Assembly: GCA_048939625.1 (NCBI GenBank)
Contig: JBHLPH010000006.1
Span: forward strand, 48,650-112,649
Origin: Promethearchaeota archaeon
GTDB lineage: Archaea > Asgardarchaeota > Hermodarchaeia > Hermodarchaeales > Hermodarchaeaceae
DNA: 64,000 nucleotides
Direction of reading: 5' to 3'
Part shown: positions 15,892 through 62,729 of the stretch, one piece after another
How positions within the stretch are numbered: position 1 is the stretch's first letter
Layout of the letters: each line of letters opens with the position of its first letter
Translations under genes and position numbers: made by a program
Notes under the pieces: model-generated
Told to the model about the DNA's origin: nothing
The model's input: only the letters and a program-made list of their open reading frames with translations
Databases searched by the model: none

Positions 15892-15990
15892 TCTACCCTT
15901 TTCACCAAGGTGAAAGCTGCTTGGTTATCACGAGTCACTAAGCCTTAAGTATATAAAGTCCAAACTCAGATAGGCTCCTCGGTGCTTACA

Positions 15991-17013
15991 ATGAAAGCAG
16001 CAGTTTTTTATGGAGCTGGAAAACCCCTTAAAATTGAAGAGGTGCCAACACCAGAAGTTAGACCCAATGATGTTCTAATTAAAGTAGCAGCTTGTGGTGT
16101 ATGCAGGACCGACTTACATTATCTGCACGGAACTCCGACATTCAAAAAGCCCCCGTTAATCCTTGGACATGAGGCCTCAGGGACCATAATTGAAATGGGT
16201 TCAGCTGTTGAAAAGTGGACTAAAGGAGATCGCGTTCTAATTCCGGCTGTTCTAAGCTGTGGATTTTGCGATAATTGTCGTTTAGGGCGTGAAAATATAT
16301 GTCAACGACAGGAAATGGTGGGAAATAACATTGATGGCGCCTACGCTGAATACATCCGTGTTCCTGCCAAGGATGTGTTTCGTGTTCCCCAGTCTTTATC
16401 TTTGGAAGAAACGAGCATTGTTGCCGATGCGATTTCTACCCCATATCATGCTGTAAAGAACCGTGGAGAAGTTCGACCAGGTGATTTAGTAGCTGTGTTT
16501 GGGTGTGGTGGTGTTGGCATCAATGTGGTCCAAATCGCTGCTGCAGCAGGGGGCATCGTTTATGCTGTCGATATTGATGATAAGAAATTAAAACTGGCTG
16601 AAAAACTCGGTGCGTCTGTGACTATTAACTCGAAGGAAGAAAATCCTGTCAAACAGATTCGGTCGATAACAAAGAAGCGTGGTGTCGATGTCTCCTTTGA
16701 GGCAATTGGTATTCCTGATGTGATGAGCCAGGCACTAGCGGTTGTGAGATGGGGTGGTCGAATGGTTGTTGTTGGATACGCTGAATCCGACTGGACTGTT
16801 TCAGCTTCGCGGATTATGTTCCGAGAAGTTGAAATCCGCGGTTCTCTTGGTTGTCGTCCTGTTGATTATCCTCCCCTTCTGCAGATGGTTGAAAATGGCA
16901 CCATTCAGCTTAAACCAATAATTGATAGCAAACGGCCACTTGAAGAAATCAATGAGGCATTCAAACTTCTTGAAGAAGGAAAGGTTTTGGGTCGGATTAT
17001 CGTGATTCCCTAA
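15991..17013 (+). CDS. had: 6-hydroxycyclohex-1-ene-1-carbonyl-CoA dehydrogenase (Zn-ADH family)
   Basis: GVCRTD, GHE, CGFCDNC; IVADAISTPYHAV and GSLGCRPVDYP; next to dch and the bzd genes. Confidence 0.8.
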   Translation: MKAAVFYGAGKPLKIEEVPTPEVRPNDVLIKVAACGVCRTDLHYLHGTPTFKKPPLILGHEASGTIIEMGSAVEKWTKGDRVLIPAVLSCGFCDNCRLGRENICQRQEMVGNNIDGAYAEYIRVPAKDVFRVPQSLSLEETSIVADAISTPYHAVKNRGEVRPGDLVAVFGCGGVGINVVQIAAAAGGIVYAVDIDDKKLKLAEKLGASVTINSKEENPVKQIRSITKKRGVDVSFEAIGIPDVMSQALAVVRWGGRMVVVGYAESDWTVSASRIMFREVEIRGSLGCRPVDYPPLLQMVENGTIQLKPIIDSKRPLEEINEAFKLLEEGKVLGRIIVIP

Positions 17014-17028
17014 GACACTCTCGCGAGT

Positions 17029-17805
17029 CTATTTTCCTTTCCATTTAGGTTTCCGCTTCTCTAAGAACGCTTTGAGCCCCTCTGAAGCATCTTCTGTATT
17101 CTTTAATGAATCTAGGTAGATCTCAGTGGATTTTTCAACAGCTTGCATGAAGGTAAGAGGTAAGCTCTCGTAAATTGCCCGACGAACGTAGCGGAGCATA
17201 ACTGGGCTATGCGCTTTGAGTTTAGTAATAAATTCATTGACTGTGGTCTCTAACTGGTCAGCAGGTACAGCGTAGTTGATGAGACCAATCTGCATAGCTT
17301 TTTCAGCTGAAATACTATCTCCAGAATAAAGCAGTTCAAAGGTTCGTTTTTGACCAACCAAATGATGCATCGCCGCTGCGGCAATCGTGGGCACTGCACC
17401 AACTTGGATTTCCGGTTGACCAAACTTAGCTGAATCCGCTGCAAATACCACATCACAAGCGAAGGCTAGTTCACACCCTCCACCCAATGCGGATCCTTGA
17501 ACTACAGTGATAACAGGTTTACCGACATCGATTAGGGCTTCAAAGACCTTGTTGAATGCTGCCAACGTTTTCGGTGCATGGTTCGGGAGGTGCTGTTCCA
17601 CATCCACTCCGACTGAATAGAACCGATCACCAGCTGTTTTCAACAGAATGAAATTGACATCTTCGTTGTTCTTCATCTCCTGAAGAGCCTTTTGAAGTTC
17701 TACAAGTGTTTTCTTATCAAGAATATTCAGGGGCGGTCGATTCACCAAAATGGTCCCCACCCCATCAGACACTTCAATCCTGATATTAGAATAGCTAGAA
17801 TTCAT
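17029..17805 (-). CDS. dch: Cyclohexa-1,5-diene-1-carbonyl-CoA hydratase (crotonase family)
   Basis: NRPPLNILD, SVGVDVEQHLP, GGGCEL, GQPEI, YLDSL..TEDASEG; genomic context. Confidence 0.75.
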   Translation of the reverse strand: MNSSYSNIRIEVSDGVGTILVNRPPLNILDKKTLVELQKALQEMKNNEDVNFILLKTAGDRFYSVGVDVEQHLPNHAPKTLAAFNKVFEALIDVGKPVITVVQGSALGGGCELAFACDVVFAADSAKFGQPEIQVGAVPTIAAAAMHHLVGQKRTFELLYSGDSISAEKAMQIGLINYAVPADQLETTVNEFITKLKAHSPVMLRYVRRAIYESLPLTFMQAVEKSTEIYLDSLKNTEDASEGLKAFLEKRKPKWKGK

Positions 17806-17859
17806 GGTGTTTCTCCTTTCACGCCTGAGTTCATCAGTGTCTGCAATATGACAAGAAAG

Positions 17860-17871
17860 AGACTTAAGTCT
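17860..17871. promoter_or_regulatory. Palindromic TATA-like element between divergent dch and the LeuA-family gene
   Basis: Perfect 12-bp palindrome AGACTTAAGTCT in a 104-bp divergent spacer. Confidence 0.45.
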
Positions 17872-17909
17872 ATTCAATCCCTATTAGTTAATCAGGTTGG
17901 CTGAGAACA

Positions 17910-19202
17910 ATGTTGCTTGACGAATTAGAGAAAGATGGCTTAATTATAAACTTTAACAAGGTTCCTCAAACAAAACCCAAGCATCTGCCCAAAAAAGTTC
18001 TTATCTGGGATGAAACTCTCCGAGATGGTGAACAAACACCGGGAACAAGCCTTTTGATTGATGAAAAAATCGAAATTGCCAAGCTAATGGATGAAATGGG
18101 AATCCCTATTATCGCCGCCGGTTTTCCAGCAGTTTCAAAAGATGAGCAAGAGGTCGTTCGAAAACTTGCTGCAGAGGGCTTCAAACAAGCCAAACTTTGT
18201 GCTCCAGCTCGTGCAATCAAATCAGATATCGATATTGCCATTCAATCTGGAGCAGAAGAAGTTCCTATCTTCATTGCATTCAGTAATCTCCACTTGAAAT
18301 ACAAATTAAAAAAAACCCCAGAAGAGGTTCTCAACATCGTAACAGAATCTATTGAATATGCAAAAAAACATGGAGTCATTGTCGACTTTGTTAGCGAAGA
18401 CACTTCGCGTACTAGCATTGATAACACAGTAAAGATTTTTAAAACTGCAGTAGAGGCTGGTGCTGACCGCGTTGTAATTACCGATACTGTGGGCTTCCTT
18501 AGACCTGAATCGATGAGATATTTGATCTCCCAAATCAGGGACCGCCTCTATGAAGAGGTTAAACGGAACATTCCCCTCTCAATTCATAACCACAATGACT
18601 TTGGATTGGCTACCGCCAACACACTAGCTGCAATCGAAGAAGGCGTCACTATTCCCCACGTCTGTGTAGCAGGGTTTGGAGAACGTGCAGGCAACGCTCC
18701 TCTCGAGGAAGTCGTCATGGCATTAGAATTCCTCTATGGCGTGCAAACAGGCATCAAAACCGAAAAAATTCAAGAACTTGCTGATTTAGTTGCGCAATCG
18801 TTTGCTATCCTTCTTCCTGTTCATAAAGCAATCACTGGCGAAAACGCTTTTTCACATGAAGCTGGCATCCATGTTCATGGCATCCTCGCTCACCGGCTCA
18901 CATATGAGCCTATCCCCGCTGAAACGGTTGGACGCAAAACTGATTTTTACATGGGCAAACATACTGGGAGCCAGATTGTGAAAAAGAAACTCAAAGAGAA
19001 ACATATCAAAGCAACCGATGAGCAGATTAATCAAATTGTTTCCCGAGTTAAAGAAACACACAAACTTCGAGACAAAGTCGAAATGCTTCGACAAGTACAT
19101 AAAGCTGCAGAACTTCTCCGGGAAACCCGTCTGGGTTTGAAAGAAGACGAATTCTGGGATATCGTAAAAACGATTACTGGGAAAAATCCAAGAAGCAATT
19201 AA
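17910..19202 (+). CDS. DRE-TIM acetyl-CoA condensing enzyme (homocitrate/isopropylmalate/Re-citrate synthase family), lacking the LeuA regulatory domain
   Basis: DETLRDGEQTPG, HNHNDFG, GERAGNA, HEAGIH, MGKHTG. Confidence 0.85.
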   Translation: MLLDELEKDGLIINFNKVPQTKPKHLPKKVLIWDETLRDGEQTPGTSLLIDEKIEIAKLMDEMGIPIIAAGFPAVSKDEQEVVRKLAAEGFKQAKLCAPARAIKSDIDIAIQSGAEEVPIFIAFSNLHLKYKLKKTPEEVLNIVTESIEYAKKHGVIVDFVSEDTSRTSIDNTVKIFKTAVEAGADRVVITDTVGFLRPESMRYLISQIRDRLYEEVKRNIPLSIHNHNDFGLATANTLAAIEEGVTIPHVCVAGFGERAGNAPLEEVVMALEFLYGVQTGIKTEKIQELADLVAQSFAILLPVHKAITGENAFSHEAGIHVHGILAHRLTYEPIPAETVGRKTDFYMGKHTGSQIVKKKLKEKHIKATDEQINQIVSRVKETHKLRDKVEMLRQVHKAAELLRETRLGLKEDEFWDIVKTITGKNPRSN

Positions 19203-19243
19203 TCACAAATATCGTAGGTAAAGTAAAGAAACTCTCGAAAAAG

Positions 19244-19888
19244 GTGAATGAAATCCCATCAAAAAGAGAGAAACTCACCGGTGAGGCAGTCAAAAGCGTT
19301 GCGAATTTAATGGCAGCTGCTGCAACAACGGCACCCAAATCAAAAGGGTTCGATGATCTTACCATTGAAATTGTATCTGGAGTAACAATCGAACAAATAG
19401 CAAAAGAAATCCAAAAAATGCGACAAGAAGATCTCACAAGCCAAACATTTTGGTTTCTGGAACCTGACGCTGAAGCCGTTTTAGAAAGTGCTGCTATCTT
19501 CCTAATTGGTATTCGGGCTAGGCGTCCTCCACTAACCCTGGATTGCCAAGCCTGTGGCTTCGAAACCTGCGCTGATTATGAAGAAGCCATTCGTCAAAAC
19601 AAAACCACTGCTCTCTGTGCCTTTAAAATCCTAGATTTAGGCATCGCTCTCTCTTCTGCAATAACAGTAGCAGCCCAACACTTCATAGATAACCGGATGA
19701 TGTGGTCCGTTGGGATGGCTGCACAACGATTAGATCTAATAAAAGGCGACTTAGTCCTTGGAATTCCCTTAGCTGCAAAGGGTAGTAATCCCTTCTTTGA
19801 TCGTTACCTGCGATTTTTCCTTCAACGCGCCCGAGACCAAGGAAAAAATCTCACTCAAGTGCTTCGTGATCAAGGATTCAATGTTTAG
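19244..19888 (+). CDS. DUF2148-type ferredoxin-domain protein
   Basis: AAATTAPKSKGFD, DCQACGFETC, C...DLGIAL, DNRMMWSVG, NPFFDR. Confidence 0.75.
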   Translation: MNEIPSKREKLTGEAVKSVANLMAAAATTAPKSKGFDDLTIEIVSGVTIEQIAKEIQKMRQEDLTSQTFWFLEPDAEAVLESAAIFLIGIRARRPPLTLDCQACGFETCADYEEAIRQNKTTALCAFKILDLGIALSSAITVAAQHFIDNRMMWSVGMAAQRLDLIKGDLVLGIPLAAKGSNPFFDRYLRFFLQRARDQGKNLTQVLRDQGFNV

Positions 19889-20220
19889 AGCGAGCGGTCC
19901 CAAGATTCATCAAAGTTAGAATTTGTAACCAGCTGCTTAAGCATTCGAGAAATTCGACGACCTAGGACCGTTGCTGTAATAACACGTGCATCATCTTCTG
20001 AATGTTTGACTAGCTCGTTCTTCTCAAGCAACGAGACATGATGGGTTATCACAGCTGGTGAATCACCACCTGCCTGAGGCTGTAAAGATTTCAAATATTG
20101 TCGTAGCGCTTTATTCGTACCAAAATCACGATCAGATAAGAATTCTAATATTGCCACACGTGAAGGGTGAGTAATCGCTGAAAGTAAACCTCGAACCCTT
20201 TCAGAATACCAATTTGTCAT
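19885..20220 (-). CDS. ArsR-family winged-helix regulator, divergent from bzdN
   Basis: SAITHPSRVAILEFL, ITHHVSLLEKNELV, TVLG. Confidence 0.75.
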   Translation of the reverse strand: MTNWYSERVRGLLSAITHPSRVAILEFLSDRDFGTNKALRQYLKSLQPQAGGDSPAVITHHVSLLEKNELVKHSEDDARVITATVLGRRISRMLKQLVTNSNFDESWDRSL

Positions 20221-20278
20221 TAGATGAACTCCCTAATTATTTTGTGCATACATATAGCAGTTCTTTCCATTGAAGTTA

Positions 20279-20323
20279 AATGATATACCATCATTATAAA
20301 ACATTTTTGCAAAAACTCTTAAG
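20279..20323. promoter_or_regulatory. Candidate operator and promoter of the bzd operon
   Basis: AATGAT-N5-ATCATT (20279-20295), palindrome TTTTTGCAAAAA (20304-20315), then CTTAAG (20318-20323). Confidence 0.4.
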
Positions 20324-20387
20324 GAAATTATTCCCAGTACCGACCGAAGAAAAAACTCCTATCCAGTGCTTTGGCAGGAAGATCCCT

Positions 20388-21512
20388 ATGTTTGATAAAT
20401 TCAAAGAGTGGTACGAAAACCGTCACGACTATGCAAAGGCATGGAAAAAACAAACGGGCGGAAAAGTACTCGGTTATTTTTGCACTTATGTTCCAGAAGA
20501 GCTCATTATTGCAGCCGATATCCTTCCCGTTCGCATTTTAGGTAGCCACGAGGCACAAGATGTAACCGAGCCCCATATCTTTGGAATGTTTTGTCCCTTT
20601 TGCCGTGACTGTTTAGCTCAAGGTTTGAAAGGTCGATTTGATTACCTCAATGGCATCATGATTGCTCAATCGTGTCTTCATATACGCCAAACGTACAATA
20701 GCTGGGTCAAACACGTTCCACAAGAGTTCAGCTATTACATGTATATGCCCCATGGAATCCAAACCCCCCATGCCTATCCTTATTTGCGGGGTGAATTGGA
20801 AGAAGTCAAGAAAGCTTTGGAAAAATGGATAGGACGCTCCATTTCAGACAAAGACATAGATCGGGGCATTGAGGTGATGAACAAAAATCGACAATTAATG
20901 AAACAAATCTATGAGTTTCGGAAACAGGACAATCCACCGCTGACCGGGCTCGAAGCGATGTACATGGTTGTTTCCAGTCAAATGGTCGATAAAGAGGAGC
21001 ACAATCAAGCACTAGAAGCCGTGCTCAAAGAACTACCCAATCGAAAACTTGACAGAAACACAGGAACCCGCCTTATGATTATCGGTAGTGAAGACGACGA
21101 TACAGAATTCGTGAAAATGGTTGAGTCGTTAGATTCTACACTGGTCGTTGATGAACACTGTACAGGCACCCGATACTTCTGGAACAAGGTTGAACCCCAA
21201 GAAGATCGATTAGCTGCCTTAGCTATACGATACATTGATCGACCTCCTTGTCCCAGTAAGGATTGGCCTGATCGAAGACGATTCCCACACATTTTGCAAA
21301 TGGCTAAAGATTACAACGTTCAGGGAGCTCTTGTTATTCAACAGAAATTCTGTGATCCCCATGAATTAGACATGCCATCATTGAGAGCAATGCTCGAAGA
21401 AAATGGTATTCCAACCTATTTCTTAGAATTTGATGTAACCGTGCCAATTGGACAGTTTAAGACACGCGTTGAAGCGTTTCTGGAAACGTTTGCACTCCCC
21501 GATCTGTTTTAG
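20388..21512 (+). CDS. bzdN: Benzoyl-CoA reductase, Bzd type, subunit N
   Basis: GYFCTYVPEE, HIFGMFCPFCRDCLAQGL, RPPCPSKDWP, QQKFCDPHE, FDVTVPIGQFKTRVEAFLE. Confidence 0.9.
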   Translation: MFDKFKEWYENRHDYAKAWKKQTGGKVLGYFCTYVPEELIIAADILPVRILGSHEAQDVTEPHIFGMFCPFCRDCLAQGLKGRFDYLNGIMIAQSCLHIRQTYNSWVKHVPQEFSYYMYMPHGIQTPHAYPYLRGELEEVKKALEKWIGRSISDKDIDRGIEVMNKNRQLMKQIYEFRKQDNPPLTGLEAMYMVVSSQMVDKEEHNQALEAVLKELPNRKLDRNTGTRLMIIGSEDDDTEFVKMVESLDSTLVVDEHCTGTRYFWNKVEPQEDRLAALAIRYIDRPPCPSKDWPDRRRFPHILQMAKDYNVQGALVIQQKFCDPHELDMPSLRAMLEENGIPTYFLEFDVTVPIGQFKTRVEAFLETFALPDLF

Positions 21513-22820
21513 GTGATGAAAATGACTGAGAATAAATATCAAACGAAACCTTTGGATATCTGGAATGAAGGGAAAGCTCTACGACAGCAATACTATGAGA
21601 ATTATGCAAAAGCTCATGAAAAAAGGGGAATCCGGTGGGCAGGTGGGGCCTGGGCTTATAGTGCGGTTCCCGCTGGTCTAGGTGACGATGTGTGGAGCCT
21701 CACTGGTGAACCATATGGGGCATCAGTTGCGTTCAACAAAGAATTCGCAGCTAAATGCCAAGAAGCGATAGAAGCGAAAGGATTTGCTCGAGATTTATGT
21801 GCGTATTTGAGAAATTATCTTGGTTCAGTTGTATTAGATAAATACGTTTTCGGTGGCAAATTTCCCAAACCAGATTTCATGTGGACAACTCATATTTGTT
21901 GTAGTCACGCGAAATGGTACCAAATCGCTAGCGACCTAGAAGGCGGTATACCCTTCTTCTGCATTGATGTAAGCACAGGATTATTTCAGGATTTCAACGA
22001 ACGGCGTCGAGAGTACGTGGTTAATCAATTGCTGGATGGCATCGATTGGCTCGAAAAGACCACTGGTCGAGACTATGATGATGAAAAACTAATCCAAGCA
22101 GTCTACAACGAATGTGAGGCAACCGCTCTTTGGGCAGAGATTTGCGTATTGAACAAAACCATTCCAGCACCTCTCGATGAGAAGACAATGTATTCACTCT
22201 ATGTGTTTGGAACCATTATGAAACATCGCCCCGAAGTTGTTGCATTCTATAAAAAGCTTCGTGACGAAGTTCAAGATCGAGTCGATAACAAAATCGCAGC
22301 AGTAGGTAATGAACAACGCCGGGTCATTACGGACACCCAACCCCCTTGGGGCTTCCTCGAGGTTTTTCGATACCTTGAATCATATGGTGTGGTGTCAGTA
22401 GGATCGCTTTACACTTTTGCATTGATTGGGGCATGGGAAGTGAAAGACGATGGAACTTGGGGCCCCAGAACAACCCCTCAGGAGCAAGGAATTGACATTA
22501 CAACCAGAAAGCAAGCACTTGAGGTTTTAGCTGATTGGACCCATTCTCGACCTGAATGGCAGCATTTCTATTCCGCCCATGAAAAAAGCGACATGATGCT
22601 CCGCATTGTACGAGAATGGAACGTTGATGGCGTTATGTTGCATTACAATCGTGGATGTGAAGGTTTATCATTGAATATCGCAGAGAACCGCCTCGCTTTC
22701 AAAGAAGCAGGCATCCCTGTTCTTCCCTTCGAAGGTAACATGGGTGATGAACGAGAGTTCGACTTAGAACGCACCAAGAAGGCCGTGGATTCCTTCTTGG
22801 AATTATTAGGAGTCAAATAG
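21513..22820 (+). CDS. bzdO: Benzoyl-CoA reductase, Bzd type, subunit O
   Basis: [56 protein letters not shown]. Confidence 0.9.
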
Positions 22821-22833
22821 GAGGTAGACAAAA

Positions 22834-23610
22834 ATGATTACTGCAGGAATTGACTTTGGCGCAAAGAACGTGAAAGTCGTCATCCTCAATGATGGTAAGA
22901 TAGTTGGAAAGGGAACTGCACTAACAGGCTTTGATTTGAAAATTGCAGCTAAAGATGCCTCAGAGATGGCTCTCAAGGCAGCAGGATTAAAACTCGAAGA
23001 CATTGCACACATCACAGAAACCGGAATTGGTCAAGGATCAGTTGAGTTTGCTAAGGATAGTATCAGCGAAGTCGGAGCAAATGCAAAAGCAGGCATCAAA
23101 TTGTTATCATCAGCCCGGACCATTATTGATGTAGGAGCAGAGGAAGCTCGGGCAGTCAAATGTAATGAATCCGGTGCTATGGAAGACTTTGTCGTGAATG
23201 AACGATGTGCTGCGGGAGCAGGTGCATTCGTTGAAGCTATGTCACGTGCACTCGAAGTTGAACTAGAGAAAATAGGTCCAATGTCTTTAGAAGCCACTGA
23301 AGCAGTTCCTATGAATGCTCAATGTACTGTTTTCGCTGAATCAGAGGTGGTATCATTAATTCATGCTAAGACACCAAAGGCGAACATCGCCCGTGCAATA
23401 CACGATGCGATTGCTGAACGCGTAGTCTCGATGGTGCGAAGGTTGGGGATAACAGAAGACGTCCTCTTGGTTGGAGGATTAGCCTATGATGTTGGCTTCG
23501 TCGATTCAATGAAACGAGGATTAGGCACGGAGGTTCACGTACCCGAGTCTCCCGAATATGTGAGTGCCTATGGCGCTGCCCTAGTGGCCCAAGAAAGAGC
23601 AAAGAAGTGA
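22834..23610 (+). CDS. bzdP: Benzoyl-CoA reductase ATPase/activase subunit P (ASKHA)
   Basis: ITAGIDFG, DVGAEEARA, NERCAAGAG, MNAQCTVFAESE. Confidence 0.85.
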   Translation: MITAGIDFGAKNVKVVILNDGKIVGKGTALTGFDLKIAAKDASEMALKAAGLKLEDIAHITETGIGQGSVEFAKDSISEVGANAKAGIKLLSSARTIIDVGAEEARAVKCNESGAMEDFVVNERCAAGAGAFVEAMSRALEVELEKIGPMSLEATEAVPMNAQCTVFAESEVVSLIHAKTPKANIARAIHDAIAERVVSMVRRLGITEDVLLVGGLAYDVGFVDSMKRGLGTEVHVPESPEYVSAYGAALVAQERAKK

Positions 23611-24506: not shown

Positions 24507-24521
24507 AGCTAGATCATCTAG

Positions 24522-24839
24522 GTGAAAGTGTTGATTGCAAATTACGGGTATAAGGATGGTTCCGGGGAATATTTCATAACGCTGGATACGGACAAATGTG
24601 ATGGGTGCGGGAAATGCGTGGATATTTGTCCCGAATTTGTACTAGAAGTAATTCCAAACGAGTTTGATATCGAAGATGGCAACATTATGGGTGTCCGAGA
24701 GGAACATCGACACAAACTCAAATACAGTTGTGCCCCATGTAAATCAACAAGCGCAGACGTCCAACCACCTTGTGCTAATGTTTGCCCAACCCAAGCAATC
24801 ACTCATTTCCTTAGTAACGCAAAAGGACAGGTCCTCTAG
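24522..24839 (+). CDS. 2[4Fe-4S] ferredoxin (BzdM-like), likely electron donor to BCR
   Basis: IANYGYKDGSGEYFITLDTDKCDGCGKCVDICP ... CAPCK...PPCANVCP. Confidence 0.8.
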   Translation: MKVLIANYGYKDGSGEYFITLDTDKCDGCGKCVDICPEFVLEVIPNEFDIEDGNIMGVREEHRHKLKYSCAPCKSTSADVQPPCANVCPTQAITHFLSNAKGQVL

Positions 24840-24905
24840 TCACGATACAATCGTTATTAATTCCATATTTCCTGTTCCCGAGAACCACCAAGAAGGTAGA
24901 ACCCG

Positions 24906-27416: not shown

Positions 27417-27436
27417 TTGCTCTGAAAATAACTGGG

Positions 27437-51761: not shown

Positions 51762-51845
51762 CAAAACTCCCTCACAAAACAGAAAGAAAGTGACCATAAG
51801 TCTTATATAAATCGTGCAGTGGATATTGACGGCTGAGGGAAAGCA

Positions 51846-53288: not shown

Positions 53289-53346
53289 AAGGATTAGTAG
53301 TCATGAAATCCTCCCCTTTTTTTAAAAAGGCACTGAGGTTTAATTC

Positions 53347-54204: not shown

Positions 54205-54206
54205 CA

Positions 54207-55280: not shown

Positions 55281-55959
55281 CCAGCTTGTTCTCTAGAAGC
55301 TCTGTGCAGTTTCCCTCTAAAGTTACTTTACCTGTTTCCATTACGTATCCTCGATCTGCAAATTTCAAAGCATAATGAACGTTCTGTTCAGCTACCAGGA
55401 TGCTAATCCCGTAATCTTTAAGCTGTTCTATGGTTTTGAAGATCTCCATCGTTAATTTTGGTGAAAGCCCTTGAGAGGGTTCATCTAACATTAAAAACTC
55501 TGGACTTGACATTAGACCTCGTGCTATTGTCAACATTTTCTGTTCTCCGCCACTGAGCGTCCTAGCAAGCTGGTTTTTCCTTTCCTTCAATACTGGAAGG
55601 AGTTGATAAATAAAGTCAAACATCTCCTCTCGCTTTGCCCTTGCCCTTGAACTATAAGCGCCTAGGGTTAGGTTTTCACTCACCTTCATGTGTGCGAAGA
55701 GCTTTCTATCCTCTGGCACATATGATATTCCAAGACCAACAATCTTGTTTGGGGGGAAACCATGAATTTCTCTCCCATTGAAGTGTATAGTGCCAGAGCT
55801 TGGTTGAAGTAGACCTGCCATTGTGCTCAAGAGTGTGGTTTTACCCGCGCCATTTGCACCAATTAGCGCGATAACCTCTCCCTTCACTACATTCATTGAG
55901 ACATCCCAGAGAGTTTGCGATTTTCCACGAAATACGTTTACACGCTGAACCTCAAGCAT
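55255..55959 (-). CDS. livF: Liv-type ABC ATPase
   Basis: GANGAGKTT, VPEDR, LSGGEQKM, LDEPSQGL. Confidence 0.9.
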   Translation of the reverse strand: MLEVQRVNVFRGKSQTLWDVSMNVVKGEVIALIGANGAGKTTLLSTMAGLLQPSSGTIHFNGREIHGFPPNKIVGLGISYVPEDRKLFAHMKVSENLTLGAYSSRARAKREEMFDFIYQLLPVLKERKNQLARTLSGGEQKMLTIARGLMSSPEFLMLDEPSQGLSPKLTMEIFKTIEQLKDYGISILVAEQNVHYALKFADRGYVMETGKVTLEGNCTELLENKLVKEAFLGL

Positions 55960-56683
55960 AATCCTCACCAAGATAGGCTTCAATGACGTGGGTGTTCTCA
56001 GCTACCTCTTTTGGTGTCCCCTCAGCAATCTTCACGCCATGATCAAGTGCCATGATGCGATCTGCAGCTTCCATCATGACCCGCATGTTGTGCTCTATCA
56101 TGAAGATGGTTGTCCCGCCACTATCACGAAGGTCCCGGACAACTCCAAGCATTTGTGTTAATTCTGTGGGATTTAAGCCAGCCATTGCCTCATCTAATAG
56201 TAAGAGCCGAGGTTTCGTGGAGAGCCCCCTCACAATTTCGAGGAGGCGCTGCTCAAACGCCGTTAATTGGGAAGCAGGTATATTGCCTTTCTCAGCCAGT
56301 CCAAACTTTTCTAATATTTGTGTGAGCTCAGGTTCAATCTCGGAAAACCCCTGATCCTTATTGCACCCGAAGCAAGCAGCGGCTAGCACATTCTCAAACA
56401 CGGTCATGTTAGGAAACGGTTTAGGGATCTGAAAAGTCCTTGCCAGTCCTAACTTACAAATTTTATGAGGTTTAAGACCTGAAATGACCTTTCCATCAAA
56501 CTTTATCATACCAGATGTCGCAGGGAGCGCACCAGACACCAGATTAAACAGTGTGGTCTTACCCGCACCGTTAGGCCCTATCAATCCAAGTATCTCGCCC
56601 TCATTGACAACAAAGTCCACGTCGCGTAGAGCAACAAGCCCGCCGAAGCGCTTACTTATTCCTTCCCCTTCAAGCAATCGCAT
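55952..56683 (-). CDS. livG: Liv-type ABC ATPase
   Basis: KRFGGL, GPNGAGKTT, ARTFQ, LLDE.MAGLN, IEH, EAYLG. Confidence 0.9.
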   Translation of the reverse strand: MRLLEGEGISKRFGGLVALRDVDFVVNEGEILGLIGPNGAGKTTLFNLVSGALPATSGMIKFDGKVISGLKPHKICKLGLARTFQIPKPFPNMTVFENVLAAACFGCNKDQGFSEIEPELTQILEKFGLAEKGNIPASQLTAFEQRLLEIVRGLSTKPRLLLLDEAMAGLNPTELTQMLGVVRDLRDSGGTTIFMIEHNMRVMMEAADRIMALDHGVKIAEGTPKEVAENTHVIEAYLGEDYA

Positions 56684-56898
56684 AGATGCTCCTTTCTGAT
56701 TATCATCTATAAATAATTTCATTGCATCCCTGATTCTTATCACCCTGCCATCCCCTTCACCGTTTTAGACTTGAAATAATACAGCAGACCAAAATTCACA
56801 CGCTACCTAAACCAGAACTTTGCTGGTAGACATGTCCACTTGTGTTGAAATACCGAGATAAGCCATATCGACGACGATAGCTTGCGCTCAAGTGAAAT

Positions 56899-56982
56899 AA
56901 AAAAAAGGTGGGAGCCAGTTTAACTGGGATTAGAGATTATGATAGCGATAATCTCTAATCGAATAGCCTGAGCTTCTCCCAC
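56899..56982 (-). terminator. Branched stem-loop plus T8 tract after the sulfurtransferase gene
   Basis: Outer GTGGGAG/CTCCCAC stem enclosing a 13-bp inverted repeat (GATTAGAGATTAT/ATAATCTCTAATC) and CCAGTT/AACTGG. Confidence 0.55.
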
Positions 56983-56987
56983 GTCTG

Positions 56988-58007
56988 TCATTCTATAGGT
57001 AGTTCACCTGAAGCTGTCCACGCTTGCCACGAGCCGTCATATACCTTGACATTGTAGTATCCAAGTACCTCACTGAGTACAAAGAACACTGTACTGGCAT
57101 AACCACCTACGCCACAATAGACAATGATTTCTTTGCGGCACCACCGAGTATACCAGCGGCTGCCAACAACATCTAATGCCATTTCCCTAAGGGTAGAAAT
57201 ATCTTTGTAAGTGGCGTATTCTAACATGGTTCCTGTAGCATCAAGGTAATGAACCCAGAGCGTAGGAGTTGGTAAATTCCTTGCCCCTGGAATATGACCG
57301 CCTGTCGGGTTTGGAGGCCAAGGCTCAACTACTATGCCGGAGTAAACGACTTCGTCTCTGGCATCGACGATTATGGCTTTACCAAGTCTACTTTCGACAT
57401 AGGCAGTATCAACAATCATCGATGCTTTCACTCGTCCATTGTACGTTACCGGGTTTATCTCAGGTACTTCCGTGGTTACAGGATATCCATCATTTACCCA
57501 TACCTCGAATCCGCCATCTAGGACGCCAACTGTATTGACACCAGCATAAACTAACGTCATAGCCACTCTAGTGATATCAGCGGTGTTATAGAGACCGAGT
57601 GGAGGTACCCCAGGTATATCATATATACCGCTTGTCGAACCAACCACAACTACTTTGGATCTCTTTGTTATACCTGCAGAGCCAAGAAGATCAAATAGAT
57701 ACTCATCGTCAGGCAATTCCATCCATGGTAAATCTTCCCCAAAGGGAGGATTCGTGATCCAGAGGCCCCCTGGGAGATTTATCGCTCCAGGAATATGATT
57801 TGCTGCGTAATCGTCAGCAACTCTGATATCGATGATGACAAGTTCTGGATGATTAAGGTGTTTGTTTAGCCAGTAGGTGGAAACAATAGGTTTCATATGT
57901 AGATGCTGAGAAAACCAAGGTCGGTAACAAGCTTGTGTAACCACTGGCGCTACCAACATTATGGCTAAAGCAAGTGTGAACAAGACTAGTATCGGTTTTC
58001 TTTTCAT
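56988..58007 (-). CDS. Tandem rhodanese sulfurtransferase with N-terminal signal peptide
   Basis: HIPGA twice, VLDGG, VDAR, YCGVGGYAS active-site loop, YDGSWQAW; MKRK plus hydrophobic leader. Confidence 0.85.
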   Translation of the reverse strand: MKRKPILVLFTLALAIMLVAPVVTQACYRPWFSQHLHMKPIVSTYWLNKHLNHPELVIIDIRVADDYAANHIPGAINLPGGLWITNPPFGEDLPWMELPDDEYLFDLLGSAGITKRSKVVVVGSTSGIYDIPGVPPLGLYNTADITRVAMTLVYAGVNTVGVLDGGFEVWVNDGYPVTTEVPEINPVTYNGRVKASMIVDTAYVESRLGKAIIVDARDEVVYSGIVVEPWPPNPTGGHIPGARNLPTPTLWVHYLDATGTMLEYATYKDISTLREMALDVVGSRWYTRWCRKEIIVYCGVGGYASTVFFVLSEVLGYYNVKVYDGSWQAWTASGELPIE

Positions 58008-58305
58008 TTTTGCTTCTCCTTTTGCTGAATGATGAATGAAAGTGTTCTTCGTTCTCTCTTTCAGCCTTTCATTCCATTAGTTCCGTCTAGCCCATCCCGC
58101 TTTTATCCACTCATCCATCAACCCCGCTTATGGCTGCTTATTGTTTATAATCATTATGGGTTGTTTTTTTCATTTTTAGAATCATTTTTGTCATTTCTTT
58201 TCAATTTTCATTATCATCTAATCAAAGAAATCGAAAAAGAAATGGAAGCGGGGTTTATGAAAGAGGAAATGCAAAAACCCCTTTTATCTAGAATTCTACG
58301 AAATT

Positions 58306-59964
58306 CTAATGGGTTTCATTTGACCCTGTTAGTATCTCCTTCCTAAGAGTCCTTCTTAGGATTTTTCCTGCCGGGCTCTTTGGCAAGTCCTTTCTAAATT
58401 CCACTTCCCTGATAATCTTGTAGGCGGCCATCCTCTCTCTGCAGAACTTGATCAGCTCTTCCTCTGTCACATTCCCCTCGTATCCCTCCCGGAGGATAAC
58501 AAATGCCTTGGGGTGCTCACCCCGATATTGATCTGGAACTCCTATCACAGCCACCTGCTCAACCGCTGGATGCTCGGATAAGACATTCTCAACTTCAAAG
58601 GGCCACACTTGATATCCTGACACTTTTATCACATCCTTTTTACGATCAACAAAGTACACGCGCCCCTCCTCATCCATATAACCAATATCACCAGTGTGAA
58701 GCCAACCATCCCTTAAGGTTTCCTTGGTCATCTCCGATTGGTTCCAGTACCCCTTCATGATTTGTGGACCTTTTGCTGTCAACTCTCCATTCTCTCCAGG
58801 CGGGAGGGTTCGTGTCCTAAGCTCCATATCCACGACTTTAACATCCGTGTCAGGAAGCGGAATCCCGACGAATTGAGGTTTCTGACTACCAATCGGTGTT
58901 AAGACAAGACCAGGGCTTGCCTCAGTTAAACCCCAGCCCTCCATCAAGTTAGGACCAGTGAGCTTTATCCACTTATTCCTAATCTCAGTGGGCATCGCAG
59001 ATGCCGCTGTGTGAAATAACCGGAAGGAGGAGAAATCACACTTCTCGATGTTGGGATGGTTGAGAAGAGCTATGTATACGGTTGGGACAGCGAAGAATAA
59101 TGTCGGCCTATACTCGTTTATCGCATTAATTACCTCATCTGCACGAAATCTCTCTAGCAGCACTATCTTCCAAGCGAAGCTAACAGCTGAGCACATACAC
59201 TCACTAAGACCAAAAATGTGATACATCGGGAGAAAAATCAGGGAGACTTCCTCGCCCTCTTTAAGCCCGCGCCAGGTTGCGTGCTGAAGTTGGTTGACAA
59301 TCAGATTGTAATGGGTTAACATGCACCCCTTTGGGATACCCGTGGTTCCACCAGAGTAGCATAGGATGGCCACATCTTCTTTCGGGTTTATATCAAGCCT
59401 AGGCGGATTCGCATCATATTTTGCGATGATATTCACAAAGTCTATTGTTTCCCGGCGCTTCACGCTCTCCTCAATGTCTCTCATACTGGTAAGGAACGGA
59501 GGAGTACTCTCTCTTAGGCTTGTAACAATGACCCTCGCCAACCCAGTTTCACCCCTAATCTTTTTGACGAGCGGGTATAGCCCCTCCGTAGTTATTATGG
59601 TTTCAGCTCCTGAATCGTTCAGCTGAAACTTCAGCTCCCTCTCCTTGAACTGCGGATTACAAGGAACAATTATCGCCCCAGCTTTCAGAACTCCAAAGAA
59701 GCTGATAACAAACTGAAGGCTGTTCTGAAGAAATAGACCTACCCTGTCACCTGTTCTAATACCCATGTCGTATAATCCAGTTGCCAACTTATCAGATAGC
59801 GTGTCGAGTTCCAGATATGTGAGTTCAACACCCTTAAACACAATCGCTACCTTGTTAGGATATTTCTTGGATACAGCCCTCAAACGATCAGGTACCGAGA
59901 CTTCTGGGTAATCAATCGTGGTGGGGACACCTTCAGGCCAAATTCCTAGCCAAGGTCTTTCCAT
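58306..59964 (-). CDS. AMP-forming acyl/aryl-CoA ligase (FadD/4CL-like)
   Basis: YSGGTTGIPKG, GWGLTE, GWLHTGD, DRKKD, LPKSPAGKILRR. Confidence 0.9.
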   Translation of the reverse strand: MERPWLGIWPEGVPTTIDYPEVSVPDRLRAVSKKYPNKVAIVFKGVELTYLELDTLSDKLATGLYDMGIRTGDRVGLFLQNSLQFVISFFGVLKAGAIIVPCNPQFKERELKFQLNDSGAETIITTEGLYPLVKKIRGETGLARVIVTSLRESTPPFLTSMRDIEESVKRRETIDFVNIIAKYDANPPRLDINPKEDVAILCYSGGTTGIPKGCMLTHYNLIVNQLQHATWRGLKEGEEVSLIFLPMYHIFGLSECMCSAVSFAWKIVLLERFRADEVINAINEYRPTLFFAVPTVYIALLNHPNIEKCDFSSFRLFHTAASAMPTEIRNKWIKLTGPNLMEGWGLTEASPGLVLTPIGSQKPQFVGIPLPDTDVKVVDMELRTRTLPPGENGELTAKGPQIMKGYWNQSEMTKETLRDGWLHTGDIGYMDEEGRVYFVDRKKDVIKVSGYQVWPFEVENVLSEHPAVEQVAVIGVPDQYRGEHPKAFVILREGYEGNVTEEELIKFCRERMAAYKIIREVEFRKDLPKSPAGKILRRTLRKEILTGSNETH

Positions 59965-60114
59965 GAAATTTACCTCGTAACCAGTTATTATTACTTCTTC
60001 CCTATAAAGCTGAAATCAAGTTATTCACTTCCCAATAGTTCATTAAATTCGCAATACATGCCTAAATCAATCACGTCGGCGCATGCAACATGAACGAACT
60101 ATGGTTCGTGTTTT

Positions 60115-60618
60115 CTAAGTCTTTTTGACATGGTAGACGGCGTACTCTTTGCGGAGCTGTTGGGCTATTTCGGTTGGGTCGCCGAAGTAAATGGCTTCCA
60201 CTGGACAATGTGCGGCACAATTGGGTTGAAGTCCCTTCTCAACGCGGTGGACACAAAGTGTACATTTTTCCACCACGTTTTGTTCTTCATTAAATTGAGG
60301 TGCTTTAAAGGGACAAGCCTCGATACAAGCCTTGCAGCCAATGCATAACTCGGTATCTATGAGGACTATACCATCATCCCGCTTTGATATAGCGTCTTCT
60401 GGACATGCCTCAATGCAAGGAGGATTGGCACAATGCTTACACACGGTTGGTACGAAGTGCAAGGTCAACTCATCGCCCACTAACCTTGGTCCCACTTGGA
60501 CGACTTGAATCCATGAAGGGCTCCCAGGAGGTATGTTATTTTCTTGCTTGCAAGCGACTTCGCAAGCGTAACACCCCACACAGCGCTCTATGTCGATTAT
60601 TAAGGCATATTGAGTCAT
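60115..60618 (-). CDS. DmsB-like 4x[4Fe-4S] subunit
   Basis: CVGCYACEVACK, CKHCANPPC, CIGCKAC, KCTLC. Confidence 0.9.
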   Translation of the reverse strand: MTQYALIIDIERCVGCYACEVACKQENNIPPGSPSWIQVVQVGPRLVGDELTLHFVPTVCKHCANPPCIEACPEDAISKRDDGIVLIDTELCIGCKACIEACPFKAPQFNEEQNVVEKCTLCVHRVEKGLQPNCAAHCPVEAIYFGDPTEIAQQLRKEYAVYHVKKT

Positions 60619-62729
60619 GCTTTACCCTCCTTTGCTTTCGAAATTTTACATAGTAAACCCACTAGGTTTGATGCGCCGATGCAAGGATCAAAGGGTGGAT
60701 TGCTGTCCGTTAAGATGTTTGCATTGGATTCCGACCACCCAAAGCCTGGTTCTTCCCTTTCTGGGAACCACCATGCATGTTGGGTGTGAACCACCTTCGG
60801 GTGTATACCTAAGGTGAGTTTCGTTATTTGCCTTATTGTCCCCCGGGGTGTTTCTATGTTGATCCATTCGCCATCCTGAATTCCATGTTTTTCAGCAGTT
60901 TCGGGATGGATTTCTACTATGGGGTTTGGGTGTACCTCGCGTAACCATGATAGTTGTCGATGTTCAGTGTGGAAGAAGACTGGGCTTCTTGCTCCCGTTG
61001 TTAGTATTAATGGATACTTTGCTGCGAGATCGGGGTTGCTTATTGGGCTTTCTGGCGGTTCTGCGTAGAAAGGTAATGGATCATAACCCCATTTTTCGAG
61101 AATCGTAGAGTACAATTCAACTTTTCGTGTAGGTGTTGAAAACCCTTTTTCTTTGTACTGCTTGGGTTCCACCTGAATTATGCCTTTTTCTTTAAACTCG
61201 TTCCAAGTCATCCCAGAGGGTTCTAGAATATAGTCGAGGTATTGATCTATGTCATCCCAGAAGTACTCTTTGTAGCCAAGTTTTTTCCCTAGCTCATTGA
61301 TGATTTTATGGTCAGACCAAGATTCGCCGACTTGTACGGCTTTGACTCTGGCTTGCACATGACCCGCACGGAAGAAGTAAGCGGCGACATCGTTGTATTC
61401 GAGCCATGATGCGACTGGTAAGACGATGTCGGCTAGTTGGGCGGTGGGTGTCATGAAGAGATCGGCGACCATGATGAAATCGAGCTTCATGAGGGCTTCG
61501 CGAACTCTTTTCGAATTGGGCCAGGTTAAGAGGGGATTACTTCCAAAGACGACCAAGGCTTTGACTGGGTATGGATCTTCCTCTAATATGGCTTTACAAA
61601 CGAGCATTGGTGGAACTATGGACATCATGTTGGCTAGTTTATATTGCTCTCCGCCAATCCTTTTCGCTCTCTGTTCTGCAGAGAGCTTGTCGGTGAGCAT
61701 AAACTCAGGGTAGCGAACCACGGGCGGCGAGGGATAGAGGAGGTGACCTCCTGGAGTACCGAGGTTTCCGGTGATGGCCATTAGTGCGATTAGTGCACTG
61801 TGATTGGCTGAACAGTTTAGATTTTGTTCGAGCTTCACGCCATAGTGGAGAGTTGCTGGCTTTGTTTGAGCATATAGCCTAGCAGCTTCTTCGATTTTGG
61901 ACATGGGAACCCACGTTATCTCTTCAACTTTGTCGAGTGGGTATTCTTCAACTCGTTTAGCCAACTCATCGAAGCCGTGGGTCCATTTCTTCACGAATTT
62001 CTTATCGTAGAGTTTTTCGCGTATGATGACGTTGAGCATCCCCAGGGCTAACGCGGTATCGGTAGCCGGTCTGAGCTGCAACCATATATCGGCGCGTGAT
62101 GCTAATGGAGTAAACCGCGGATCGATGACGATTAAGCTAGCCCCGCGATTCAACACCTTTGCCAACTTGATCGCTTTGTACTCGTCTGGGTTGGTGAGAA
62201 CAGGATTGCAGCCCCAAACCATTACACAGTTTGGGTTGTTATCATAATCGCATATCGGTAAGCCCCCACAGATAATGATGGAGGAACCAACGCGTGGAAT
62301 GTAGCACACGTAGCCGGGTGAGGTTACGTTAGGAGCGCCAAAGAGGTTGACTAGCCTGTGCACGAAATGGAGGTAAGCTCTATCGGTGCCGTGGGCAAAC
62401 ACCACGGATTCCGCACCGTTCTCTTGCTTAATCTTTGTGATTTTACTTGCTACGATATCTAAGGCTTCACTCCACGTAATCTTTTGAAACTTCCCCTCAC
62501 CTCTCCCACCGACGCTCTTCAATGGGTGGAGTAGTCGCTTGGGATTGTCGACGAGTTGCATCGACGCTAATCCCTTGGCACATAGGGTTCCATGGCTTAT
62601 CGGGCTGTCAGGGTCTCCCTCAACCTTTACGACTTTTCCATCCTTAACATGTATCAGTACATCGCAACCACCATGGCAACTTCGACAAACACTTTTGACT
62701 ATCCTAACTCCGGATTGCAATCTGTACAC
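60615..62729 (-). CDS. Bis-MGD Mo/W enzyme of the DMSO-reductase family, acetylene-hydratase-like clade, cytoplasmic
   Basis: CRSCHGGC...LCAKG, VCYIPR (Cys ligand), ADIVLP, TPTRKVEL, FHTEHRQ, HAWWFPE; no Tat leader. Confidence 0.85.
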   Translation of the reverse strand: MYRLQSGVRIVKSVCRSCHGGCDVLIHVKDGKVVKVEGDPDSPISHGTLCAKGLASMQLVDNPKRLLHPLKSVGGRGEGKFQKITWSEALDIVASKITKIKQENGAESVVFAHGTDRAYLHFVHRLVNLFGAPNVTSPGYVCYIPRVGSSIIICGGLPICDYDNNPNCVMVWGCNPVLTNPDEYKAIKLAKVLNRGASLIVIDPRFTPLASRADIWLQLRPATDTALALGMLNVIIREKLYDKKFVKKWTHGFDELAKRVEEYPLDKVEEITWVPMSKIEEAARLYAQTKPATLHYGVKLEQNLNCSANHSALIALMAITGNLGTPGGHLLYPSPPVVRYPEFMLTDKLSAEQRAKRIGGEQYKLANMMSIVPPMLVCKAILEEDPYPVKALVVFGSNPLLTWPNSKRVREALMKLDFIMVADLFMTPTAQLADIVLPVASWLEYNDVAAYFFRAGHVQARVKAVQVGESWSDHKIINELGKKLGYKEYFWDDIDQYLDYILEPSGMTWNEFKEKGIIQVEPKQYKEKGFSTPTRKVELYSTILEKWGYDPLPFYAEPPESPISNPDLAAKYPLILTTGARSPVFFHTEHRQLSWLREVHPNPIVEIHPETAEKHGIQDGEWINIETPRGTIRQITKLTLGIHPKVVHTQHAWWFPEREEPGFGWSESNANILTDSNPPFDPCIGASNLVGLLCKISKAKEGKA

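Follow-up and report, generated by a model that had tools for sequence, protein, structure and literature searches.

The sequence analyzed here (hereafter the window) is a stretch of 64,000 nucleotides from an Asgard archaeon of the class Hermodarchaeia, namely the last 64 kb of the 112,649-bp contig JBHLPH010000006.1 (assembly GCA_048939625.1). Between positions 15982 and 62729 it carries a 47-kb block in which genes for the benzoyl-CoA pathway of aromatic degradation directly adjoin a corrinoid methyltransferase module equipped with its own importer, oxidoreductases, and CoA ligase (Table 1). Using an open reading frame (ORF) listing and Pfam and NCBIfam scans of the window's proteins, we divide this block into two units: unit 1, the benzoyl-CoA cluster, which consists of blocks B, C, and A in that order (15982-42635), and unit 2, module D (42791-62729). 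The contig ends 1.27 kb past position 62729, leaving the right border of the block open. All gene classes that an earlier inspection of the letters alone (the sequence-only reading) had listed were recovered where it had placed them, together with several that it had not: an isopropylmalate-synthase-like (IPMS-like) gene, a DUF2148 protein, an ArsR-type HTH protein, an Amidohydro_2 protein, an F420-type LLM oxidoreductase, two MoaD/ThiS-like proteins, an exported rhodanese, and an acetylene-hydratase-like Mo/W enzyme with a Fer4_11 subunit.

Table 1. Genes and gene blocks of the 47-kb region (window positions; bit scores are followed by the NCBIfam cut-off of the model).
Feature	Positions	Strand	Remarks
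Block B, Had to IorB	15982-31225
Zn-dependent dehydrogenase, candidate 6-hydroxycyclohex-1-ene-1-carbonyl-CoA dehydrogenase (Had)	15982-17013	+	Pfam ADH_N, ADH_zinc_N; best NCBIfam match TIGR03201, 274 bits (cut-off 339)
Enoyl-CoA hydratase, Dch candidate	17029-17877	-	Pfam ECH_1; TIGR03189 153 bits (cut-off 292), not its top match
Isopropylmalate/homocitrate-synthase-like (IPMS-like)	17910-19202	+
DUF2148 Fe-S protein	19244-19888	+
ArsR-type HTH	19885-20220	-	divergent from bzdN
BzdN	20280-21512	+	TIGR03190 517 bits (cut-off 454)
BzdO	21513-22820	+	TIGR03191 617 bits (cut-off 449)
BzdP	22834-23610	+	second activase-type ATPase; TIGR00241 195 bits (cut-off 125)
BzdQ	23607-24506	+	TIGR03192 403 bits (cut-off 380)
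2x[4Fe-4S] ferredoxin	24522-24839	+	kept after bzdQ in congeners
BzdV-like NAD(P)H oxidoreductase, 836 aa	24906-27416	+	2Fe-2S, NuoG-like, and GltD-like parts; conserved in congeners
Amidohydro_2 protein	27684-28556	-	sole PDB relative uncharacterised
IorA-like 2-oxoacid:ferredoxin oxidoreductase	28707-30614	+	TIGR03336 593 bits (just under cut-off 651)
IorB-like subunit	30611-31225	+
Block C, beta-oxidation genes	31349-38644
Crotonase	31349-32122	+
F420-type LLM oxidoreductase	32135-33184	+
DUF35	33191-33613	-
Thiolase	33628-34788	-
Thiolase	34935-36119	+
DUF35	36070-36531	+
MenB/BadI/Oah-like hydrolase, Oah candidate	36677-37624	+	TIGR03200 174 bits (cut-off 464)
3-hydroxyacyl-CoA dehydrogenase	37709-38644	-
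Block A, AorABC-like AOR1	38659-42635
FAD subunit (AorC-like)	38659-39933	+	AorC 8c0z_E, E 3e-45
4Fe-4S subunit of AOR1	39953-40408	-	Pfam
AOR1	40405-42237	-	1aor E 7e-117; 8c0z_A E 5e-74
MoaD/ThiS-like protein	42261-42635	-	C-terminal GGG; likely start near 42557
Module D, corrinoid system, AOR2, ADH2, Liv importer, rhodanese, ligase, Mo/W enzyme	42791-62729
MT1, URO-D-fold methyltransferase I, 450 aa	42791-44143	-	ORF extends to 44194
Corrinoid protein	44172-44819	-	B12-binding
RACo-type corrinoid reductive activase	45125-47041	+	Pfam RACo domains
MtrH-family methyltransferase II (MT2)	47025-47954	+	TIGR01114 323 bits (cut-off 271)
MoaD/ThiS-like protein	47955-48254	-	GG end
AOR2	48318-50330	-	9mqx_D E 1e-154; 1aor E 4e-135
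4Fe-4S subunit of AOR2	50239-50733	-
Zn-dependent alcohol dehydrogenase (ADH2)	50730-51866	-
Membrane-anchored substrate-binding protein (SBP), Liv-type	51846-53288	+
Liv permease	53347-54204	+
Liv permease	54207-55280	+
Liv ATPase	55255-55983	-
Liv ATPase	55952-56743	-
Exported tandem-rhodanese protein	56988-58007	-	N-terminal signal peptide
AMP-forming acyl-CoA ligase	58306-59964	-
Fer4_11 subunit	60115-60618	-	Pfam
Bis-pyranopterin guanine dinucleotide (bis-PGD) Mo/W enzyme, acetylene-hydratase clade, candidate catechol dehydroxylase	60615-62729	-	cytoplasmic

The two units do lie next to each other in this Hermodarchaeia genome, an arrangement that is real but confined to the species. Exact look-ups of AOR1 and Had led to a second, separately deposited assembly (GCA_016550425.1), whose 39,950-bp contig JABXGS010000240.1 is collinear with window positions 5982-45750, without gaps and with 24 mismatches (99.88-99.97% identity), and spans the epimerase/Had, IorB/crotonase, HBD/AorC-like, and MoaD-like/MT1 junctions; the exact MT1 sequence was not on record. 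The physical linkage of demethylase and bzd genes is thereby reproduced, and since the second assembly is collinear over all suspect junctions, a chimera near 42.6 kb—one of the findings that the sequence-only reading had named as refuting its proposal—is unlikely. G+C content is even across the 42.6-kb junction and throughout the region. The locus is archaeal, as that reading had supposed: proteins sharing 90%-identity clusters with those of the window come from Candidatus Hermodarchaeota, Hermodarchaeia, or Promethearchaeota. The source metagenome-assembled genome (MAG) comprises 2.31 Mb in 83 contigs, with an estimated completeness of 87.6% and contamination of 6.3%, and no 16S rRNA gene was found in this 87.6% complete MAG.

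Unit 1 encodes a class I benzoyl-CoA reductase (BCR) of the Bzd type. BzdN, BzdO, and BzdQ clear their NCBIfam equivalog cut-offs, the catalytic subunits BzdN and BzdO (each single-copy in the genome) are accompanied by two different BcrAD/BadFG-type ATPases, and a ferredoxin and a reductase lie adjacent; no BzdP-specific model was among the NCBIfam matches of the second ATPase. Candidates for the subsequent steps are more divergent. The Had candidate is syntenic and 88-92% identical in congeners, in all of which the Dch candidate adjoins it, and the Oah candidate of block C scores better on the MenB and BadI models than on TIGR03200. In block A, an AOR catalytic subunit, a poly-ferredoxin, and an FAD subunit together form an AorABC-type set that resembles Aromatoleum AorABC; the genome holds ten AOR-family paralogues. 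From these family assignments, the ATP-dependent BzdNOPQ enzyme would dearomatize an aryl-CoA with electrons from the neighboring ferredoxin, which may be recharged by the IorAB-like 2-oxoacid oxidoreductase and/or the BzdV-like NAD(P)H enzyme. The Dch-, Had-, and Oah-like enzymes, with the thiolase/dehydrogenase/crotonase set, would then open the ring and shorten the chain, and the AorABC-like tungsten enzyme of block A would oxidize aldehydes to acids.

Unit 2 opens with a set of four components like that of the MtoABCD/Mtv-type O-demethylases (URO-D-fold MT1, corrinoid protein, RACo, and MtrH), all within 42791-47954. The MT1 start is most likely Met18 of the ORF, which gives a protein of 450 aa. 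On the bacterial MtgA model the MtrH-family MT2 scores 335 bits (cut-off 550), about equal to its score on TIGR01114, and the methyl acceptor may thus be tetrahydromethanopterin (H4MPT) or folate. In the predicted scheme, MT1 would transfer a methyl group to the corrinoid protein, RACo would keep that protein active, and the archaeal-type MtrH would hand the methyl group to H4MPT (or folate) and hence to the Wood-Ljungdahl pathway encoded elsewhere in the genome. The sequence-only reading had called for a check of this pathway, and its genes are indeed there (Mch, CdhC, and a Mer split over two contigs); the H4MPT branch could serve as the sink for the methyl group. The LLM oxidoreductase of block C is not itself a Mer (148 bits against a cut-off of 349), the real Mer lying on contigs C24 and C17.

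The remainder of module D provides the context in which a substrate for MT1 can be sought. AOR2 has its own Fe-S subunit and no FAD subunit, and the SBP and permeases are the only Liv-type ones in the genome; all module D genes are single-copy. The Liv-type ABC system would import a polar methylated compound, and ADH2 with AOR2 would oxidize an alcohol or aldehyde side chain. An importer, an alcohol dehydrogenase (ADH), an AOR, and a ligase in one module favor a polar organic substrate with an oxidizable side chain and a carboxylate end product, a profile that methoxylated aromatic alcohols, aldehydes, and acids appear to fit better than gases do. Methoxylated compounds of the guaiacyl type (i.e., aromatic alcohols, aldehydes, and acids) are accordingly the most likely predicted substrates.

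Comparison with 18 other Hermodarchaeia genomes (14 congeners and 4 of the sister genus; G000 denotes the present genome and other G numbers denote other genomes) indicates that the two units have different histories. BzdO orthologues occur in 8 of the 14 congeners (92-96% identity) and in 2 of the 4 sister-genus genomes (83-84%), i.e., in 10 of these 18. The block order is C-A-B in G010, where block C is collinear at 72-95% identity, and block A likewise adjoins Had, at the A/B junction, in G014 and G007. In the window the order is B-C-A-D, with block B transposed and its orientation kept. Unit 1 is, to judge from this synteny, the lineage's vertically inherited benzoyl-CoA catabolic cluster. 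Relative to contig C27 of G010, the window arrangement amounts to a cyclic permutation with all orientations kept (compared at 15700-16000, 31225-31350, and 42635-42790), as could arise from tandem duplication followed by loss or from transposition.

Module D is present in only 3 of the 19 Hermodarchaeia genomes (G000, G006, and G013). Orthologues of MT1 in other Hermodarchaeia are confined to G006 (87% identity), G013 (64%, a partial gene), and assembly GCA_048883345.1 (90%), and those of the Mo/W enzyme to G006 (85%) and G013 (92%), so that the two genes share a phyletic pattern that extends to fragments of both on one contig of G014. Contigs C95 and C62 of G006 together give the whole module in window order without the rhodanese, the MoaD-like/AOR2/4Fe-4S/ADH2 stretch being collinear at 72-77% identity. 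The decayed remnant in G014 lies on a 162-kb contig (G014:C5, ~112,000-115,300; loci L126 and L127) and retains, in rearranged order, residues 1-186 of the Mo/W enzyme, an intact RACo (77% identity), residues 2-116 of MtrH, and residues 429-467 of MT1, which implies that this lineage formerly had the module and is losing it. Past the MT1 stop codon lie AOR1 in the window, a [NiFe]-hydrogenase-like gene in G006, and a penicillin amidase in GCA_048883345.1. The supercluster of the sequence-only reading is thus not a conserved unit: the demethylase module is missing from the C-A-B arrangement of congeners, what flanks MT1 changes from genome to genome, and a search for mto-bzd synteny found none in the 18 Hermodarchaeia or in four Loki-type genomes with both genes.

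At a broader scale, among 400 Asgard species genomes, an MT1 orthologue (at least 59% identity) was found in 18 and a BzdO orthologue (at least 63%) in 58, with both in 7 (G000, G006, G013, and the Loki-type G195, G218, G219, and G227). Having both capacities is thus not unique to this genome; their contiguity is. The other Asgard MT1 orthologues (59-65% identity) were accompanied only by the corrinoid protein, as a corrinoid-MT1 pair, in the eight loci inspected.

Outside Hermodarchaeia, the relatives of MT1 are mostly bacterial. The ~450-aa family is very large: of 8000 candidates scored, over 6000 matched at E<=0.001, and the top 120, at 70-90% identity, belong for the most part to Dehalococcoidia, Anaerolineae, Desulfobacterota, and Spirochaetota, plus a single one from Bathyarchaeia; members as a whole come from Chloroflexota, Desulfobacterota, Spirochaetota, Bacillota, Actinomycetota, Bathyarchaeia, and Asgard archaea. 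Identity to homologues in Chloroflexota, Desulfobacterota, and Spirochaetota is 65-83% for MT1 and 55-81% for the corrinoid protein. In a FastTree phylogeny the three Hermodarchaeia MT1s form a small clade beside a Dehalococcoidia sequence, within an 82-member, Chloroflexota-dominated group that a long branch separates from the other Asgard homologues. Given this nesting among Chloroflexota, transfer from bacteria is the simplest reading, and module D is, by these relationships, an accessory cassette largely of bacterial origin. The 79 genome-contig MT1 matches outside Hermodarchaeia share 64-83% identity with the window's MT1 (64-87% over all genome-contig matches examined), an unusual degree of conservation across phyla. 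To our knowledge, no member of the family has been characterized.

Gene neighborhoods in these relatives repeat much of module D. Across the 79 MT1 loci outside Hermodarchaeia, nearly all of them bacterial (80 loci in all for the corrinoid count), the corrinoid protein neighbors MT1 in 75 of 80, Liv-type ABC genes in 48 of 79, an AOR in 25, a Zn-ADH in 21, the same Mo/W enzyme (~53% identity) in 9, and a CoA ligase in 8. The recurrent bacterial order is AOR-ADH-SBP-LivHMGF-rhodanese-corrinoid protein-MT1-(RACo)-(Mo/W enzyme-FeS), and several Desulfobacterota loci have a homologue of the rhodanese (40-49% identity) placed between livF and the corrinoid gene. Such operons (in Desulfobacteraceae, Dehalococcoidia, Anaerolineae, and Spirochaetota; AOR/ADH, RACo, and Mo/W enzyme being variably present, as is the rhodanese) resemble module D in accessory genes and partial order, and we know of none that has been characterized. 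However, no MtrH-type MT2 was found near MT1 in the bacterial loci, and L041, the one bacterial locus with Pfam calls, has a pterin-binding, folate-type MT2; the MtrH of module D thus marks the Hermodarchaeia cassette as a hybrid. In a Spirochaetota locus (L040; CP070841, ~3.462-3.471 Mb), the corrinoid-MT1 pair adjoins a TetR gene, a pair of FAD_binding_4 genes with a CCG Fe-S gene (glycolate-oxidase-like or vanillyl-alcohol-oxidase-like), and a Zn-ADH plus an AOR, a further variant of the side-chain-oxidizing partners of the module.

The Mo/W enzyme is the candidate bridge between the two units. Its best PDB match is acetylene hydratase (2e7z, 415 bits), followed by thiosulfate reductase (2vpw, 271), with pyrogallol-phloroglucinol transhydroxylase so far behind (62) that this identity was rejected. 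It is not a true acetylene hydratase either: aligned to 2e7z it reads CRSCHGGC against CQSCDINC, with His in the position of the catalytic Asp and the metal-ligand Cys kept. Catechol dehydroxylases are bis-molybdopterin guanine dinucleotide (bis-MGD) enzymes closest to acetylene hydratase, and those of the Gordonibacter type are smaller, carry no signal for twin-arginine translocation (Tat), and have a small 4Fe-4S protein as partner (Maini Rekdal et al., 2020; PMC7028382). The module D enzyme shows the same combination of an acetylene-hydratase-like bis-PGD protein, no Tat (RR) motif in its sequence, and a small 4Fe-4S partner, a likeness to the Gordonibacter/Eggerthella enzymes (Dodh, Cldh, Dadh, and Hcdh; PMC7028382) that is drawn at the level of family description. 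Gut lignan metabolism, in which O-demethylation precedes catechol dehydroxylation, follows the same logic as that proposed here, although the present host is a sediment archaeon and its putative enzyme would feed a catabolic CoA pathway rather than a respiratory electron sink.

In the scheme we propose, O-demethylation of a guaiacyl unit would yield a catechol, the Mo/W enzyme would remove the para-hydroxyl to leave a 3-hydroxyaryl acid, and the ligase would make a CoA ester (e.g., 3-hydroxybenzoyl-CoA) reducible by the BCR. The Thauera BCR does reduce 3-hydroxybenzoyl-CoA. Dehydroxylation by this route would also explain why no 4-hydroxybenzoyl-CoA reductase was found in the genome. What suggests this demethylase-dehydroxylase-BCR chain is the co-variation of MT1 with the Mo/W enzyme and their co-location in bacteria.

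Much of the ring-reduction half has been described before in this lineage. Zhang et al. (2021; PMC8163825) reported the Hermodarchaeota bzd core (BcrABCD/BzdNOPQ, ferredoxin, BzdV, Dch, and Had) on one contig, mtrH genes beside corrinoid proteins, AORs, Ior, and an H4MPT Wood-Ljungdahl pathway, and BCR in both Hermodarchaeota and Lokiarchaeota; methoxy groups and demethylation do not occur in that paper, which cites the Azoarcus bzd cluster. Relative to their cluster, in which no MT1, Liv importer, or Mo/W module is tied to bzd, the new element here is the demethylase/importer/Mo/W module beside bzd, along with the rearrangement of C-A-B into B-C-A-D. For the demethylase half, mto homologues have been noted in Lokiarchaeota and Helarchaeota (Welte et al., 2021; PMC8359953). 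Like MtoABCD of Methermicoccus shengliensis and Archaeoglobus fulgidus (PMC8630106, PMC8359953), module D combines a UroD-fold MT1, a corrinoid protein, a RACo-type activase, and an MtrH-type MT2, in a host with an H4MPT Wood-Ljungdahl pathway as the methyl sink. Unlike MtoABCD, its MT1 belongs to a separate, mostly bacterial 450-aa clade (compared with MtoB by architecture only) and is accompanied by an ABC importer, an AOR with an ADH, a ligase, and a Mo/W enzyme. In the Mto hosts the ring is set free, and neither PMC8630106 nor PMC8359953 mentions BCR. CdmBCA of Acetobacterium dehalogenans (9rui; PMC13222342) similarly joins an MT1, a corrinoid protein, and an MT2, in this case a folate-type one, and comes without an importer, AOR, ADH, ligase, or Mo/W partner. 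In Bathyarchaeum tardum an O-demethylase occurs with an incomplete Bcr, and benzoate inhibits the organism (PMC10477458). Among open-access papers and preprints, we found none that brought Asgard archaea together with methoxylated aromatics and benzoyl-CoA in a single proposal.

The gene order of unit 1 itself is familiar. The bzd cluster of Azoarcus/Aromatoleum and the class I BCR of Ferroglobus placidus comprise BzdN-O-P-Q, a ferredoxin, and a BzdV-like reductase, with genes of a modified beta-oxidation nearby, and the window has the same succession with beta-oxidation genes close by. It differs from them in its Asgard host, its divergent Dch, Had, and Oah, and the IPMS-like and DUF2148 genes upstream of bzdN. 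Thauera has KorAB in place of the IorAB-like enzyme seen here.

Taking these data together, we give about even chances to a two-unit reading, in which a vertically inherited benzoyl-CoA cluster was joined by an acquired demethylase module that acts on probably methoxylated aromatics and passes the ring to the BCR. The more ambitious version—that this archaeon completely mineralizes guaiacyl-type lignin monomers by way of an O-demethylase feeding H4MPT, a Mo/W dehydroxylase, the ligase, and the class I BCR—is doubtful. The claim of the sequence-only reading that one archaeon uses both the methoxy carbon and the ring thus survives in part: genes for both, and a candidate bridge, are present, whereas the supercluster did not hold up as a conserved unit and the methoxy-aromatic substrate stays a candidate. 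Several observations weigh against coupling of the two units. Their adjacency is seen only in this species, with other neighbors in G006, GCA_048883345.1, and G014; MT1 and BzdO lie on different contigs in G195, G218, G219, and G227; and bzd genes are absent within 10 kb of MT1 at all 79 loci outside Hermodarchaeia. A recent linkage that arose by rearrangement in one species is a weak argument for co-function. The Dch, Had, and Oah candidates all fall under their equivalog cut-offs (Table 1), the ligase is generic, scoring below every NCBIfam cut-off (272 against 375 bits for the benzoate-CoA ligase family), and a search of the 88%-complete genome turned up no xanthine-dehydrogenase-type 4-hydroxybenzoyl-CoA reductase. 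Compared with solved binding proteins, the SBP resembles none of those for aromatic acids and gives only weak matches to Leu/Ile/Val binders, and the exported rhodanese, unexplained beside a methyltransferase system, could point to a sulfur compound. The closest solved relative of MT1 is CdmB (9rui, E 4e-35), to which only the C-terminal half, a barrel that also matches the URO-D model, aligns well; CdmB dehalogenates chloromethane, does not use methoxy-aromatics, and is nearest to archaeal MtoB (31% identity), with homologues in Asgard archaea of the Sigynarchaeales (PMC13222342). Family membership therefore leaves the substrate of MT1 unfixed, and a methoxy-aromatic is a candidate that is not established.

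These points feed three alternatives. If only the methyl group were used, module D would support methoxydotrophy as in A. fulgidus and Methermicoccus, with the phenolic product excreted, while bzd served benzoate and aryl acids from aromatic amino acids by way of IorAB/AOR and the adjacency was a by-product of rearrangement. The hydroxylated ring is indeed released by every cultivated methoxydotrophic archaeon (PMC8359953), at least 8 Hermodarchaeia genomes have the bzd cluster without module D, and the variable flanks of module D, the missing 4-hydroxybenzoyl-CoA reductase, and the lack of bzd near MT1 elsewhere point the same way. Yet module D includes a ligase and a Mo/W enzyme of the clade that contains catechol dehydroxylases, neither of which would be needed if the ring were excreted and both of which co-vary with MT1, and the presence of an ABC importer, an ADH, and an AOR speaks for processing of the carbon skeleton; we consider methyl-only use unlikely. 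A non-aromatic or non-O-methyl substrate (e.g., methylmercaptopropionate/dimethylsulfoniopropionate, a haloalkane, a methoxylated aliphatic alcohol or acid, or a methylated amino-acid derivative), with no metabolic tie to the benzoyl-CoA cluster, would suit the kinship to CdmB, the use of thiols and halides by other UroD-superfamily MT1s (PMC13222342), an importer of the branched-chain amino-acid type, the rhodanese found inside the module here and in Desulfobacterota, and the Spirochaetota locus with glycolate-oxidase-like FAD and CCG genes. A gas such as chloromethane, however, should need no ABC importer, ADH, AOR, or CoA ligase, the Mo/W partner falls in a clade related to catechol dehydroxylases, and the module landed beside aromatic genes in this genome, so that we hold such a substrate to be distinctly improbable.

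The third alternative, an assembly or binning artefact that joined a demethylase module and a bzd cluster of different organisms near 42.6 kb, or a contaminant contig, is already largely refuted and very hard to credit. The MAG's contamination estimate, the 83% identity of MT1 to a Dehalococcoidia gene, and a junction confined to this species would be in keeping with it. Against these stand the second assembly across the junction, the even G+C content, the synteny of blocks A, B, and C in many congeners, the archaeal MtrH type of the module's MT2, and the recurrence of module D in three other Hermodarchaeia assemblies, with the remnant embedded in the long G014 contig.

Lignin-derived methoxy-aromatics are a large carbon pool in anoxic sediments, of which cultivated methoxydotrophic archaea use the methyl groups only. 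With an importer and a demethylase joined in one genome to a ligase and a complete ring-reduction pathway, and with a candidate catechol dehydroxylase between them, a concrete hypothesis arises: some Asgard archaea degrade whole lignin monomers. If this were true, no earlier archaeon would have been shown to draw on both the methoxy carbon and the ring, and the Mo/W enzyme would be the first catechol dehydroxylase to funnel lignin monomers into the benzoyl-CoA pathway; the importer/MT1/Mo/W module would represent a widespread, uncharacterized sediment pathway in Chloroflexota and Desulfobacterota. As the ring half is already published and the linkage is specific to one species, we regard the locus as a good lead rather than a new kind of system. 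It also singles out a large, highly conserved, and uncharacterized corrinoid methyltransferase family whose operon context can now be put to biochemical test.

A few further genes of the block are conserved in congeners or recur within it. The IPMS-like, DUF2148, and ArsR-type HTH genes lie directly upstream of bzdN in G010, G014, G001, G007, G006, and G013 as well, and we know of no role for them in the benzoyl-CoA pathway. The Amidohydro_2 and IorAB genes are syntenic in G014, G001, and G007; the former was considered as a LigW-type decarboxylase, an assignment that was dropped when a PDB search returned only an uncharacterized relative. Finally, each of the two AOR genes is followed by a small MoaD/ThiS-like beta-grasp protein ending in GGG or GG, and these proteins may serve sulfur transfer for the tungsten cofactor.

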